This document shows, piece after piece, positions 4,735 to 27,722 of a DNA stretch of 64,000 bases. A model generated the notes under the pieces. It was not told where the DNA came from. It made no database searches and saw only the letters and a list, made by a program, of their open reading frames with translations. This DNA comes from Escherichia phage slur02: sequence record NC_028927.1, one strand, 5' to 3'. How positions within the stretch are numbered: the first letter of the stretch is position 1; each line of letters opens with the position of its first letter. The translations under genes were made by a program, and so were the position numbers.

Positions 4735-5017
4735 TCATATCCTCAATTTGCGATCTAGTAGTCTTCCAAAGAATACTGATGAGTTCATCGTTATATGGCT
4801 GTTTTAGAATATCCCGACTTTTCTTGATAGCATATTCGTATTGAGCAAAATTATTGTTTTCAGCTGCAATCTGAGCGTGCTTATAAAGACGATTCAGTTC
4901 GCGTTTGTTTTTAGACAATAACTTATTTGCTTTTCTTTCTGCTTCAAGACGGTTCTTTTCTTCAATAGAAGAAATAAGCTTTTCCACTTCATCATTAATT
5001 TCGGGTTTATCAGTCAT
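4700..5017 (-). CDS. Hypothetical protein, charged/helical
   Basis: ORF track 105 aa. Confidence 0.5.
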   Translation of the reverse strand: MTDKPEINDEVEKLISSIEEKNRLEAERKANKLLSKNKRELNRLYKHAQIAAENNNFAQYEYAIKKSRDILKQPYNDELISILWKTTRSQIEDMIDAYTRKIQAS

Positions 5018-5018
5018 A

Positions 5019-5237
5019 TTATTTCTCTAATATAAAATAAAAATCATCATCTGTTAAATGATACCTGTAATTTAATTCTACACCATTAGATTTAAAAGCG
5101 GTATCATACGGATTTTCTGGATCAATATCAATGTCAAGAGCTAAAACTTCCCTGAGATACATTTTAAGTAAATAGGGAATAGCTTCAACTTCAGGTATTT
5201 CTTCCAAGAATCCGGAGAGGTTAATCGTTAGCCTCAT
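5019..5237 (-). CDS. Hypothetical small acidic protein
   Basis: ORF track 72 aa; tightly packed with gp55. Confidence 0.45.
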
Positions 5238-5778
5238 ATAAAAAATCCAAACTAGGAGAATCGTCTACAACACTTTTCTTTTCAGCCCCCGGTGTTCTAT
5301 AGGTTGATTCTTCGTAATGCGTCATTTTATCGTAGATGTCTTGAATAAAAGTTTCATCTACTAACGCAACCATATCGTCGTCACGGCTGTCATAGACATT
5401 GTGAACGAAGTAACTATATTTCTTTGCAACTTCCTTACGTTCTTTTTTAATACGTTGGACGAATGCATTAAAACAAGCTTGAGTTATATATGCATGTGGG
5501 TTTTTATATTTCGTTTCATCAAAATTATGAAGCCCCTTAATAGAAGCTTCTATACCATCTGCAATCATTTCTTGTTTCCAAGACTGGGTGTATCCTGAAA
5601 AGTTGAAACGTTTAGATAAGCCTTCTGCAATAAGCATAATGGCTAATCCGATAGTATCATTCTGACGAACTACTTTATTTGGGTCTTTATTATTTGCTAA
5701 TTCTGTTTTCCAATCAATAATAGCTTGTAAAAGCTCTTTATTGTTTACGTAATTATATTTAGGCTTAGTTTCTGACAT
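5221..5778 (-). CDS. 55: Late-transcription sigma factor gp55
   Basis: 185 aa from [20 protein letters not shown]..., matching recalled T4 gp55; ORF track adds two N-terminal residues. Confidence 0.9.
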
Positions 5779-23974: not shown

Positions 23975-24187
23975 TCATTTTTGTCCTGTATTTACTTTAT
24001 GCCGATGCACGGCCTTAACTTTATCAAGGTATTTTTCAAAATTTCGCAATCTAGTATAGTCTGCCGGAGATTGGTTGAGTGATACTTCTCGACGCAAAGC
24101 TGAAATGATATTTCCAACTTCCCTACGAATTTCATCTAATTGAAGCACAGTAAGATTGCGAAGTTGCTTTTCAGTTAATTGTAGCAT
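23975..24187 (-). CDS. Hypothetical small basic protein
   Basis: ORF track 70 aa. Confidence 0.45.
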
Positions 24188-24229: not shown

Positions 24230-24811
24230 CTAACCGAGCTTTTTAGTTAATTCATTCCAATGTTTTCTACACAAAGAAACATAAATTTCATCACCAATAC
24301 AGATTTGATTACCTTCTTTAACTGGTGTTCCATCTTCCATTAATCGAGCTGTCATAATCGCTTTTTTACCACAATGACAAACTGCTTTTAATTCAATAAG
24401 TTTATCTGCAATCGCTAAAAGTTCTTTAGAACCTTCAAATAATTTTCCAGCGAAATCAGTCCTTAATCCATAAGCCATAACAGGAACATTATATGTATCA
24501 ACAATTCGGCTCAATTGATGCACTTGTTCAGTTTTTAAAAACTGAGCTTCATCTACAAATACGCAATGAATATCTTTTTGTGCTTCAGCCCATTTATAGA
24601 ACTCGAAAATATCCATATCATCTGTAATAATATTCGCTTCCTGTTTAATTCCAATGCGAGAAACAACTTCACAGACAGAATCGCGAGTATCAATAGCAGG
24701 CTTAAGAACTAATACACTCATTCCACGTTCTTTATAATTATGTGCAGCAGTCAAAAGAGAAGCAGATTTTCCAGCATTCATTGCTGCATAAGTAAAAATT
24801 AAACTCGCCAT
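24230..24811 (-). CDS. tk: Thymidine kinase
   Basis: 193 aa; P-loop AAMNAGKS; Cys-rich C-terminus. Confidence 0.9.
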   Translation of the reverse strand: MASLIFTYAAMNAGKSASLLTAAHNYKERGMSVLVLKPAIDTRDSVCEVVSRIGIKQEANIITDDMDIFEFYKWAEAQKDIHCVFVDEAQFLKTEQVHQLSRIVDTYNVPVMAYGLRTDFAGKLFEGSKELLAIADKLIELKAVCHCGKKAIMTARLMEDGTPVKEGNQICIGDEIYVSLCRKHWNELTKKLG

Positions 24812-24820
24812 ATCACCTTC

Positions 24821-25006
24821 TTAAAGCGTATTCACATAAGCTATTAATTCATTTTCTTTCTTATCAAACCGATCAGCAAATTCTTCCTGCTGTTCGGGAG
24901 ATAGCGGGCCGTATTCATCATAAAAGGTGTTTGCTTCTGTATGCTCATCTAGAAGTTCATGGATAAGCTCAAACAATTTATCTTTTTGTTCTTTACTCAG
25001 ACTCAT
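24821..25006 (-). CDS. Hypothetical small acidic protein
   Basis: ORF track 61 aa. Confidence 0.4.
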   Translation of the reverse strand: MSLSKEQKDKLFELIHELLDEHTEANTFYDEYGPLSPEQQEEFADRFDKKENELIAYVNTL

Positions 25007-25176
25007 ATATTAATTTCCAGGAGTTTTAAGATAATTCGCTTTTGCTTAAATATTTCCATCGTTAAATGATCAATATCTTTTTGACCAATTCCAATAGCAA
25101 AACCCTTATTTACGGCAAGTTCAATTAAATTATCAATATTGCGTAAAACTTCATAACGTAACTCAAAATTATTCAT
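25003..25176 (-). CDS. Hypothetical 57-aa protein
   Basis: Own reading (MNNFELRYEVLRNID...); ATATGA overlap with downstream ORF. Confidence 0.3.
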   Translation of the reverse strand: MNNFELRYEVLRNIDNLIELAVNKGFAIGIGQKDIDHLTMEIFKQKRIILKLLEINI

Positions 25177-25400
25177 TTTGGTTCACCTTCTTTAACGAAA
25201 TCAGGATAAGGATAAAATCCTGAATAAAATCCTTCACCTTTATGATTGATGCATCCTTTATTAGAACAATAGCACCAATAATCGAAATCACAAGCCATTT
25301 CATCGTTGCATAAAGCAAAAACAACCGGCCACTTACACTTTTCACAGTGGGCATTTTTAAGAATACTAGTTTGGCTCATAACCATGTAACCTTTAAGCAA
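25173..25400 (-). CDS. Hypothetical Cys-rich small protein
   Basis: 75 aa with 9 Cys. Confidence 0.4.
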   Translation of the reverse strand: MLKGYMVMSQTSILKNAHCEKCKWPVVFALCNDEMACDFDYWCYCSNKGCINHKGEGFYSGFYPYPDFVKEGEPK

Positions 25401-25588
25401 TATTCTTCTACATGTTGTTTACGACCTTTCTTATCAATAAAGGTATATTCAACGAATGTTCCAATGTAGTCTTTATCTACATCATGTGGACTATTAATTG
25501 GACATTTAGTACGGCAAATGCGTTCCCATTGACGAATAATTACTGCTTTGTTTTTAGGATCAAACGGATGTGGGTAATGCACTTTCAT
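25376..25588 (-). CDS. Hypothetical small protein
   Basis: ORF track 70 aa. Confidence 0.4.
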   Translation of the reverse strand: MKVHYPHPFDPKNKAVIIRQWERICRTKCPINSPHDVDKDYIGTFVEYTFIDKKGRKQHVEEYCLKVTWL

Positions 25589-26039
25589 AATCCACCACTA
25601 TTAAATCAATATCAGGAGTAAACATGTCGATTAATTTAGAAACCTTATCCCAATCGCCGCCAGCAATACCACAACCTATGCGTGGAATGTAAATTACCGG
25701 TTTAAACAAAAGGGTTTCTGCCTGTAGATTTAATTCTATCATGCAGTTTACTAAAGCACCATAATCAAGATTAGGACCTGGTTCGTATTGCGTATACAGG
25801 TTATAGCATATACCAAAACCATTAGGTTTATGTTTAAAAACAATAGACATATCGCCTAATTTATCACGAGAACCGTACTCAGTAGTGGTTTTATCTATTT
25901 CTAAAATTTTGGGATAGGCTCTTGCTAATTGACCAGCTACACCTGAACCCATAGTATGAAAACAATTGCACCCGTGCGCAATAATATTACCTTGAAGAAA
26001 TAGGGCGACAATATCGCCCTTGATATATTTTACAATCAT
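25560..26039 (-). CDS. Macro-domain-like protein (putative ADP-ribose binding/hydrolase)
   Basis: 159 aa; GDIVALF...NIIAHGCNCFHTMGSGVAGQLARAYP and later IPRIGCGIAGGDW resemble macro-domain signature blocks. Confidence 0.55.
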   Translation of the reverse strand: MIVKYIKGDIVALFLQGNIIAHGCNCFHTMGSGVAGQLARAYPKILEIDKTTTEYGSRDKLGDMSIVFKHKPNGFGICYNLYTQYEPGPNLDYGALVNCMIELNLQAETLLFKPVIYIPRIGCGIAGGDWDKVSKLIDMFTPDIDLIVVDYESALPTSV

Positions 26040-26377
26040 CTAGTACTCAATCCTCGATTATAAGAATCTACCAAACGGTCAACCATTGAATGACAAGCGG
26101 CTTTATCTTTCTCCTCCGCAACTGAACATTCTAAGGTATTCCACTTTTTAGCATATCGTTTTAACAATGTATCATTTTTGTATCTGCTTGATTTATCTCT
26201 TTCTCCGTCTTTATATGCATATATTAATTTCTGCGCAAATTCAGCTTGGCATGCTTTATTTTTCCCGCAATAATCCGCTGCAGTACGGTTTACATACTCT
26301 CTAATTTCAGTATATGATGTATCTGCTAACGCAGAAAATGAAATTAATCCTATACATAAAACCAAAATTTTAGTCAT
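26036..26377 (-). CDS. Hypothetical secreted protein
   Basis: 113 aa; signal peptide MTKILVLCIGLISFSALA. Confidence 0.5.
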   Translation of the reverse strand: MTKILVLCIGLISFSALADTSYTEIREYVNRTAADYCGKNKACQAEFAQKLIYAYKDGERDKSSRYKNDTLLKRYAKKWNTLECSVAEEKDKAACHSMVDRLVDSYNRGLSTR

Positions 26378-26915
26378 TTACTATTTCCAAAAGTTTATTA
26401 TTTTTAAGGTAATTAGCCTTTTCTAGGACTTCAGAAGCATATTTAGAACCTGCTTTAACATTCCATCCCGAATTATAAGAGGATATTGCTTTTCTTATAT
26501 CGCCCTTATGTATATTTAACCAATAAGAAAGTTCAATGTACGCCCAGGAAGCTGAATTGGACCGTTTATTCAACATTCTTTTTATTTCAGCATCGGTCAT
26601 ATTATAACCAAGTTCCTTAACTCTTGCTCGCATAGTAGGCAAATAATTTTGGAACATTCCGTAGGCGTGATGCTTTGCTTTAGATTTTAAATTAACTCCG
26701 CCAGAGCTTTCTTGCCATAAAATAGCAGCCATTATATGACCCAATCCGCTCTTGTGGATATTTTTGTGTGTTTTATATTTTCCATCCTTAGAAAATTGTT
26801 CCCCGAATTGATACGCGTAACGCATGTTATCGAGTTGGACATTACTGAAAGTATGCTCGGAGCTATGTGCCATCATTGAAATGGCCAATAGACCAGCGAG
26901 TAGTGCTTTTCTCAT
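26370..26915 (-). CDS. Secreted lytic-transglycosylase-like protein
   Basis: 181 aa; signal peptide; WQESSGG...AYGMFQ block typical of SLT domains. Confidence 0.65.
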   Translation of the reverse strand: MRKALLAGLLAISMMAHSSEHTFSNVQLDNMRYAYQFGEQFSKDGKYKTHKNIHKSGLGHIMAAILWQESSGGVNLKSKAKHHAYGMFQNYLPTMRARVKELGYNMTDAEIKRMLNKRSNSASWAYIELSYWLNIHKGDIRKAISSYNSGWNVKAGSKYASEVLEKANYLKNNKLLEIVND

Positions 26916-26922
26916 GCTTACC

Positions 26923-27384
26923 TCATTGAGTTTTAATTACTGCTTTAGAAGCCTTTCCTGGTAAACGACGACTGTTGATAATTGCCATCCTGCATTGAAG
27001 TGACGGGTCTTTGAACTTCTCATTAGGCTTACAAACCGTAAATCCAAGCCAAAGATTTCCATCTGTGATTTCTAAACGTCCAGGACGATATTCAACCCCA
27101 TCAATAAAATCCTCGTCAATGTCAGGACGCGGAGGCATACTCAGGAATTCATTAACTTCTAAAACATGGTCTTTTATTTTATGGAATAATTCAAAAACAT
27201 ATGTCTCATCAATCTCCCGTTGAATTGCACGATCAAGAAGATGTTGAGAATATTTTAGATGAAACGATGAGACTCCTGCTGCTTTTGATGCCTCACGAAT
27301 CTCATTGTTAATTTGACGAAACTCCGACTCAAAGTGACGACGAAGCTTATTTCGACGGATAAAAACTTCTGTATTGATAGTCAT
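26923..27384 (-). CDS. regB: Endoribonuclease RegB
   Basis: 153 aa matching recalled T4 RegB (MTINTEVFIRRNKLRRHFESEF...); early promoter at 27412-27440. Confidence 0.85.
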   Translation of the reverse strand: MTINTEVFIRRNKLRRHFESEFRQINNEIREASKAAGVSSFHLKYSQHLLDRAIQREIDETYVFELFHKIKDHVLEVNEFLSMPPRPDIDEDFIDGVEYRPGRLEITDGNLWLGFTVCKPNEKFKDPSLQCRMAIINSRRLPGKASKAVIKTQ

Positions 27385-27443: not shown

Positions 27444-27722
27444 TTATTCTTTAAATCTAATCAATTTATTCATAGACTTTGAAACTTCTGCACGAACCTC
27501 ATGTAAGTTTTTAAGCTGTTCAAGACGCTGCTCATAGTAAGCAATTTCATCTTCTTCGAGACAGTCCTGTGAATCTTCTTTAAGATAGCGTGCATAGTCC
27601 TGGAAAGCTTTACGGACTACTTCCTGGAAGTCATCAAGACTTTGAATTTTCTTAGGAGCGGCAGATACACGACGAGGGGCAGTATAATACTCATAACCAA
27701 ACCCTGCACTTAATTGAGCCAT
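27444..27722 (-). CDS. Hypothetical small protein
   Basis: ORF track ORF trimmed to Met 15 (TAATG junction). Confidence 0.5.

Follow-up and report, generated by a model that had tools for sequence, protein, structure and literature searches.

The locus examined here raises the question of whether a 159-aa open reading frame (ORF) in the tk-regB accessory region of a T4-like phage encodes a macrodomain and, if so, whether this protein could reverse or consume the ADP-ribose marks and signals of bacterial defences such as DarTG and Thoeris, as was proposed in an original prediction. The window is the whole stretch of DNA that was analysed, 64,000 nucleotides from Escherichia phage slur02 (NC_028927.1). 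The 3.2 kb surrounding the gene are 100% identical in DNA to Escherichia phage slur04 (LN881729.1/NC_042130; Straboviridae, Tequatrovirus) and 98-99% identical to many other T4-like coliphages. We have chosen to refer to this version of the gene as the slur04 allele, and to its product as the macro protein.

Gene neighbourhood

Read in the sense of transcription, the minus-strand genes are, in order, regB, vs.1, vs, the macro gene, tk.3, a Cys-rich ORF, a 57-aa ORF, a tk.2-like ORF and tk (Table 1), which agrees with the predicted placement in the tk-regB accessory region. The overlap between the stop codon of vs and the start codon of the macro gene suggests that the two may be translationally coupled and carried on one transcript, within a leftward array that is the equivalent of the regB-tk region in T4. 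A Shine-Dalgarno-like motif, GAGGA, is located upstream of the macro ATG and ends 11 nt away from it. Promoter-like sites were not enriched between positions 24000 and 28000 (13 found, 14.9 expected), and the sole plausible site in this interval lies upstream of regB. A terminator-like hairpin within the macro ORF was examined and judged not functional. No ART domain was detected in the nine flanking ORFs that were scanned, and the macro gene is adjoined by vs and tk.3, with no darT.

Table 1. Features of the macro gene and of its surroundings (positions in the window; strand in brackets where assigned)
Feature	Position	Strand	Remarks
regB	26923-27384	(-)	Pfam REGB_T4
vs.1	26370-26915	(-)	SLT domain
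vs	26036-26377	(-)	
ATGA, overlap of vs stop codon and macro start codon	26036..26039	(-)	Read from the sequence
Macro gene, 159-aa ORF	25560..26039	(-)	ATG start; ORF listing and translation; positional counterpart of T4 tk.4/adfM
First ADP-ribose-binding loop, residues 22-36, HGCNCFHTMGSGVAG	25932..25976	(-)	Predicted; invariant columns
NLYTQ, residues 80-84	25788..25802	(-)	Q84 at the catalytic Lys position of TARG1/DarG
Second, diphosphate-binding glycine-rich loop, residues 119-130, PRIGCGIAGGDW	25650..25685	(-)	Predicted; invariant columns
Core of the diverged (recombined) cassette	25555..25915	(.)	DNA identity to T4 40-73%, sliding profile
tk.3	25376-25588	(-)	DUF7202
Cys-rich ORF	25173-25379	(-)	PF23895
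57-aa ORF	25003-25176	(-)	
tk.2-like ORF	24821-25006	(-)	
tk	24230-24811	(-)	

Fold and family of the macro protein

The two blocks that had been quoted as resembling the macrodomain signature, GDIVALF...NIIAHGCNCFHTMGSGVAGQLARAYP and IPRIGCGIAGGDW, were found letter for letter in the translation of the 159-aa ORF. The search against the Pfam Macro profile that the original prediction had named as a check gave a match above the gathering score: PF01661 was matched with 33.1 bits (E=6.1e-8) over profile positions 2-117 of 118, the gathering score being 22 bits. A sequence search of the PDB with the macro protein returned only macrodomains, with single-sequence E-values of 1.4e-10 for BT1257, 1.2e-9 for yeast Poa1p, 1e-7 for SCO6735, 2.4e-5 for Mycobacterium tuberculosis DarG and 9e-3 for TARG1. 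When a profile of 58 homologues was used instead, the E-values were 8e-19 for BT1257, 1.9e-16 for TARG1, 4.7e-15 for SCO6735, 1.5e-14 for Poa1p and 4.4e-12 for DarG. All of the profile matches at E<1e-5 in the PDB belong to one of these five proteins, and coronavirus macrodomains reached only E~7e-3. In total, homologues of the macro protein were found in 2851 phage records.

The structural model is in agreement with these searches. AlphaFold2, supplied with an alignment of phage homologues from which the T4 sequence had been left out, yielded a model with a mean pLDDT of 94.5 and a pTM of 0.89, in which strands and helices alternate. Foldseek matched this model to 166 PDB chains at E<=1e-3, the top ones being TARG1, Poa1p, BT1257 and DarG (probability 1.00, TM 0.72-0.79), and the order of the macrodomain classes was the same as in the PDB profile search. 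The model and its matches display the three-layer alpha/beta/alpha macro fold. The resemblance is far beyond chance, and the assignment as a macrodomain, which the original prediction had offered as a likeness, is solid, being borne out by Pfam, AlphaFold2 and Foldseek alike. The closest neighbours, in sequence and in structure, are members of the ALC1-like/TARG1-like macro class and not of the MacroD, PARG or viral nsP3 classes.

The best structural matches are human TARG1/OARD1 (PDB 4J5R), yeast Poa1p (6LFR) and Bacteroides BT1257 (2FG1). BT1257, which has no assigned function, shares with the macro protein a Gln at the Lys position and the AGG loop. Poa1p, described as a phosphatase, carries insertions. 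The macro protein is as similar to Poa1p as it is to DarG, which is a counterpoint to the function favoured below.

DarG (PDB 5M3I, 5M31), the antitoxin side of the comparison with DarTG2, has the same fold (Foldseek 1e-7, TM 0.72-0.74) and presumably the same substrate. It was the only PADLOC match of the macro protein and the best of two weak NCBIfam matches, in which model NF048014 was aligned over positions 2-138 of 338 with 27.6 bits, the cut-off being 250. DarG differs in possessing Lys80 and a C-terminal DarT-binding domain and in adjoining darT, whereas the macro protein has Gln84, measures 159 aa and is encoded as an orphan within an array of phage genes. We also considered whether the macro protein is itself a DarG, and rejected this on the score and the length, on the missing Lys in the FPTK motif position and on the missing adjacent darT.

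Conserved residues and the glutamine at position 84

In the alignment of 58 homologues, the invariant residues are G8, H22, G23, N25, C26, G33, A35, D49, N80, Y82, Q84, P119, G122, G124 and W130. A second set of 81 sequences, comprising slur04, T4 and IMG/VR loci, retained N25, C26, G33, A35 and D49 as invariant and also supported the invariance of the loop 2 residues P119, G122, G124 and W130. Q84 was present in each of the 80 homologues of this set that cover the position. The two glycine-rich loops, MGSGVAG (residues 30-36) and IGCGIAGG (residues 121-128), are both present, together with the conserved Asn.

A difference from TARG1 and DarG is found at position 84. Q84 was placed opposite K84 of TARG1 by hhalign, and likewise by hmmsearch against the PDB chain of TARG1; hhalign against the M. 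tuberculosis DarG macrodomain placed it opposite K80, with NLYTQ pairing with NFPTK. At the position of TARG1 Asp125 the macro protein has A126. The Lys84/Asp125 dyad of TARG1 is thus replaced by Gln84 and Ala126. The absence of both the DarG/TARG1 catalytic Lys and the TARG1 Asp is a further counterpoint to the favoured function.

This arrangement, namely a Gln at the Lys position, no TARG1-type Asp and an AGG loop, is that of SCO6735 from Streptomyces coelicolor (PDB 5E3B), where the equivalence of the two Gln residues is transitive: Q84 corresponds to SCO6735 Gln85 by alignment through TARG1 and DarG, whose Lys residues (K84 and K80) are equated with Gln85 in PMC9411070, and SCO6735 in a search of the PDB with a C-terminal fragment was aligned over the loop 2 segment only. 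In this loop, PRIGCGIAGGDW of the macro protein is near-identical to PRIGCGLAGGTW of SCO6735 and to PRIGCGLAGGKW of BT1257, whereas TARG1 has the unlike PRIGCGLDRLQW. SCO6735 lacks the Lys and the Asp of TARG1 and cannot act without Gln85, which takes the place of the Lys (PMC9411070). It hydrolyses the link between ADP-ribose and thymidine in DNA, probably by means of an activated water, and confers protection against DarT; activity is wholly lost in Q85A and Q85E, and Q85A abolishes the hydrolysis of thymidine-ADPr (PMC9411070). Like the macro protein, SCO6735 is an ALC1-like, stand-alone single domain with a PRIGCGxAGGxW loop; the protection against DarT is a property established for SCO6735. 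It differs in being a bacterial DNA-damage-inducible protein and in that the mobile loop following the Gln is longer and rich in Lys. Judging from these alignments, we would place the macro protein among the ALC1-like macrodomains, as one of the Gln type.

Relation to T4 Tk.4

In T4 (NC_000866), the slot between tk.3 and vs is occupied by tk.4, which encodes 155 aa and is annotated as 'phosphatase; contains A1pp phosphatase motif'. The macro gene occupies the same tk.3-vs slot and is the positional ortholog of tk.4. The two proteins, of 159 and 155 aa, align end to end without gaps with 56-57% amino-acid identity over the full length and share all of the family-invariant residues, including H22, N25, D49 and Q84. 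Loop 2 reads IGCGIAGGDW, the family consensus, in the slur04 allele and IGAGIGKGNW in T4, so that the slur04 allele is the nearer of the two to the consensus. As another counterpoint to the favoured function, 43% of the positions, including loop 2, differ from the T4 protein that was tested.

The function of the T4 counterpart has been addressed by HIDEN-SEQ, in which a T4 transposon library was grown on a host expressing DarTG2 (bioRxiv, November 2025; 10.1101/2025.11.20.689424). tk.4 was the single significant T4 hit on DarTG2, and a clean tk.4 knockout sensitised T4 to this system; the gene was named adfM, for anti-DarT factor Macrodomain (10.1101/2025.11.20.689424). The authors describe Tk.4 as structurally similar to the M. 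tuberculosis DarG macrodomain; in their words, it 'seems likely' that ADP-ribose is removed enzymatically from DNA (10.1101/2025.11.20.689424). In our search of the literature on Tk.4 together with ADP-ribose, only this preprint and a comparative-genomics paper from 2006 were found.

A second phage protein, PhiKZ gp104, has also been named AdfM (Cell Reports 2026; PMC13309987). In vitro it removes the ADP-ribose that DarT2 attaches to the second T of the TNTC motif, and the removal of thymidine-ADPr is reduced in the N23A mutant (PMC13309987). Both gp104 and the macro protein are phage-encoded orphan macrodomains with a conserved Asn, N25 of the macro protein aligning with N23 of gp104; the action against DarTG2 is that of gp104. 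In contrast to the macro protein, gp104 is a true DarG-clade, Lys-type protein with an FPTK motif (E=9e-25 to M. tuberculosis DarG, 5M3I), and it is imported into the phage nucleus. Its relationship to the slur04 family is confined to the profile level (hhalign E=6e-9, 21% identity). The two proteins named AdfM, in T4 and in PhiKZ, belong to different clades.

The idea of DarTG reversal by a phage macrodomain thus holds for the T4 counterpart, where it is supported by genetics, and for the analogous PhiKZ protein. It is not new. The slur04 gene already bears the product name "Macro domain protein" in GenBank (LN881729; CUL01958.1), T4 tk.4 has its A1pp annotation, and the function in T4 is described in the preprint. 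The gene is real and the core of its interpretation right, but both were known, as an annotation and, for the T4 counterpart, as a function.

Exchange of the gene among T-even phages

With regard to the genes surrounding the macro gene, very few differences from T4 are observed. Protein identity between slur04 and T4 is 99.5% for tk, 95.7% for tk.3, 97.4% for vs, 99.4% for vs.1 and 100% for regB, against 56-57% for the macro protein. At the DNA level, the flanks are 91-100% identical to T4 in most 60-nt windows, one window in vs reaching 83%, and the 5' part of the macro gene is 83-86% identical. The reverse pattern was observed with IMG/VR locus L003, which we take to be a JS98-like phage: the macro ORF is 81-93% identical in DNA, whereas the flanks reach only 40-70%, and the macro alleles of slur04 and L003 are ~94% identical, whereas protein identity is 70% for tk, 45% for vs and 67% for vs.1. 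Given that the macro gene has diverged from T4 between near-identical flanks and that L003 displays the converse, the macro gene is a recombined cassette. Exchange of cassettes is a common pattern for anti-defence genes. Among 50,697 phage records, about 311 carry the slur04-type allele at >=90% identity, while the 57% allele is the one present in T4, T2 and many other phages. On the strength of this divergence, the tested T4 protein and the slur04 protein should probably not be treated as interchangeable by default.

The Cys-rich neighbouring ORF

The neighbouring 75-aa ORF (25173-25400) had been credited with 9 Cys and with a possible role as a zinc-binding partner of the macro protein. The count is 7 Cys, together with 2 His. 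Translation probably begins at the ATG at 25379, giving 68 aa; this ATG coincides with the GenBank start and with the beginning of the match to the Pfam family PF23895, 'Phage zinc binding domain' (E=2.6e-29). A zinc-binding fold is plausible on the basis of this match.

The role as a partner did not survive comparison with other genomes. The ORF is absent from T4 between tk.2 and tk.3, and it adjoins the macro gene in 11 of the 26 T4-like loci that carry the latter. It accompanies the slur04-type allele in L003, L004, L006 and L022 and the T4-type allele in L013, and it is missing beside the slur04-type allele in L005. The more distant macro-bearing loci mostly lie outside the tk/vs.1 context (51 of 55), and only one of these distant loci, L043 (32% identity), gave a weak match to the ORF. 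Since the ORF is absent from T4, where tk.4 alone scored on DarTG2, and is variably present elsewhere, it is not an obligate partner and was rejected as such. The block contains several small genes that vary in this way, of which the ORF is one.

Proposed function and alternatives

The reading that we favour, with a probability of roughly 0.72, is that the macro protein, as the slur04 allele of Tk.4/AdfM, is a stand-alone ADP-ribosyl hydrolase whose macrodomain is of the TARG1/DarG/SCO6735 (ALC1-like) class, and which most likely acts against DarTG2 and probably uses SCO6735-type catalysis. It builds on the observed fold, family, conserved residues and synteny with T4 tk.4. Moreover, the phage-homologue profile matches all three of the hydrolases in the PDB that act on thymidine-ADPr in DNA, namely TARG1, SCO6735 and DarG. 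In the proposed mechanism, the DarT2 toxin of the host would ADP-ribosylate thymidines, within TNTC motifs, in single-stranded phage DNA and thereby block replication. The macro protein would bind ADP-ribose through its two glycine-rich loops and cleave the N-glycosidic bond to thymine N3, which would restore replicable DNA and neutralise DarTG2. Gln84, which is invariant, would hold the distal ribose and an activated water in place with the help of Asn25, probably as in SCO6735, for which simulations show the Gln in contact with the ring oxygen of the distal ribose. TARG1 and DarG, in contrast, depend on Lys for their chemistry. As DarG and SCO6735 also inhibit DarT by direct binding (PMC9411070), protection need not be purely catalytic.

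The first alternative concerns the cassette exchange. The slur04-type allele may be functionally non-equivalent to T4 AdfM, in which case a swap between T-even genera would have brought in a Gln-type macrodomain with another range of substrates or toxins, and the tk.4 slot would be a hot spot for ADP-ribose erasers that match the defences of the host. We regard this as unlikely. Such a range might, for example, take in further variants of DarT2, RNA that carries uracil-ADPr or direct binding of DarT2.

It is also possible, but improbable, that the macro protein acts on small derivatives and not in DNA repair, either as a Poa1p-like ADP-ribose-1''-phosphate phosphatase or as a hydrolase of O-acetyl-ADP-ribose or ADP-ribose metabolites. 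Poa1p is among the best matches (E=1.2e-9, TM 0.79), and a phosphatase is what is suggested by the A1pp annotation of T4 tk.4 and by the label of PHROG 335, 'phosphatase'. Of the Poa1p residues that are mutated in deposited structures (H23, S30 and F152), H23 and S30 have counterparts in H22 and T29, which were placed opposite them, while F152 was not placed. Iyer et al. have argued that phage macrodomains act mostly on small ADPr derivatives (PMC9503650). Against these points, the sole known phenotype of T4 tk.4 is sensitivity to DarTG2. Many macrodomains show weak Appr1p phosphatase activity in vitro, which is rarely physiological, and the T4-type RNA repair by Pnk/Rnl is not known to proceed by way of Tpt1/KptA, the source of Appr>p; both considerations count against a phosphatase.

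A comparably small chance is given to the reversal of other ADP-ribose marks, such as uracil- or ribose-linked marks placed on RNA by other host toxins, Glu/Asp-linked marks on protein or the marks of the phage enzymes Alt, ModA and ModB, or to the degradation of Thoeris-type ADPR signals. Such breadth has precedents, given that uracil-ADPr on RNA is a further substrate of TARG1, DarG and SCO6735 (PMC13036486) and that SCO6735 and TARG1 act on proteins too (PMC9411070), although in the T4 screen tk.4 was found only with DarTG2 (10.1101/2025.11.20.689424). We found no data that tie Tk.4 to RNA, protein, Alt/Mod or Thoeris targets, and the proposed link to Thoeris in particular was encountered neither in the analysis of the locus nor in the literature on Tk.4. 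The marks of the Alt and Mod enzymes are Arg-linked, a type that the ALC1-like macro class is not known to cleave, and the known anti-Thoeris proteins are sponges of unrelated folds.

Very unlikely, finally, is a stoichiometric inhibitor that would bind DarT2, or sequester its product or substrate, without catalytic turnover as the main action: inhibition of DarT in vitro persists in the catalytically dead mutants DarG K80A, TARG1 K84A and, above all, SCO6735 Q85A, an effect termed 'interaction-inhibition' (PMC9411070), and the fast turnover of alleles at the locus is the pattern expected of a protein-protein interface in an arms race, but the macro protein is without the C-terminal DarT-binding domain of DarG (159 aa; 27.6 versus 250 bits), PhiKZ AdfM acts enzymatically, and the strict invariance of the active site, even among distant homologues in phages, suggests that catalysis is what has been selected for.

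Significance

DarTG systems stop phages by ADP-ribosylating phage DNA. With AdfN as an eraser on the guanine side and AdfM on the thymine side, phages carry orphan 'antitoxins' against DarTG. The macro gene is a further instance of the eraser on the thymine side and adds little as a discovery. The T4-type AdfM family, however, has no counterpart of the DarG/TARG1 catalytic Lys and resembles the Gln-type enzyme SCO6735. Moreover, the difference of more than 40% between alleles among closely related T-even phages could reflect selection by different host defences.

Results

Compared with T4, the macrodomain gene of slur04 (macro gene) showed only 40-73% identity at the DNA level and 56-57% at the protein level, while its flanks were 91-100% identical in most DNA windows and the flanking proteins were 96-100% identical. 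The pattern was reversed in L003, an IMG/VR locus of a 170.5-kb phage, which we take to be JS98-like. Here, the macro ORF shared 81-93% of its DNA and 94% of its protein sequence with that of slur04, and the genes flanking it just 45-70%. Judged from these identities, the gene forms a cassette that has undergone recombination.

Features in and around the macro gene
Feature	Coordinates	Strand	Remarks
Macro cassette, window	25555-26035
Macro cassette, T4 comparison locus (L002)	4923-5390
Macro cassette, L003	3001-3477
GC-rich hairpin, 8-bp stem	26002-26020	-	Codons 7-13 of the macro gene; flagged as terminator-like
vs (valyl-tRNA synthetase modifier)	26036-26377		Directly upstream of the macro gene; ATGA overlap with its start
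57-aa ORF	25003-25176		PHROG 3452; without Pfam match
68-aa Cys-rich ORF	25173-25379		With 7 Cys, 2 His and a match to Pfam PF23895 'Phage zinc binding domain'

The hairpin within the macro gene, AGGGCGAT-ATT-GTCGCCCT (about -13 kcal/mol), is kept by every allele that encodes KGDIVAL at this site, those of T4 and the JS98-like type included, and is missing from homologues with other residues there. Within the hairpin, the KGDIVAL alleles differ only by loop changes or by the replacement of a wobble pair with a Watson-Crick pair, and no compensatory changes were seen among the alleles compared. Conservation of the hairpin may be a simple consequence of the KGDIVAL codons.

Between tk and tk.3 (window 24811-25400), the small genes of slur04 are also unlike those of T4: T4 tk.1 has no counterpart, the tk.2-like ORF shares only 54% identity with T4 tk.2, and the 57-aa and 68-aa ORFs are additional to the T4 set. 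On the other side of the macro gene lies vs, the T4 gene for which the HIDEN-SEQ preprint (10.1101/2025.11.20.689424) reports the strongest depletion in minimal medium.

In the GenBank record LN881729.1 (L001), several unrelated neighbouring genes (26370-26915, 27444-27722 and further upstream) are labelled 'Endoribonuclease RegB'; among them are vs.1 (26370-26915), whose product carries an SLT transglycosylase domain, and the vs.3 and vs.7 homologues. A match to Pfam REGB_T4 is confined to 26923-27384, and the surplus labels look like annotation carry-over.

Discussion

The name AdfM (anti-DarT factor Macrodomain) has been given independently to two phage macrodomains, PhiKZ gp104 (PMC13309987) and T4 Tk.4 (10.1101/2025.11.20.689424). 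PhiKZ gp104 is a DarG-clade macrodomain of the Lys-type (FPTK) at the catalytic lysine position of TARG1/DarG, whereas T4 Tk.4 and the slur04 protein are of the Gln-type (YTQ) and are nearer to BT1257 and SCO6735. The catalytic mechanism of gp104 likely differs from that of the T4 and slur04 proteins, a difference which the common name masks.
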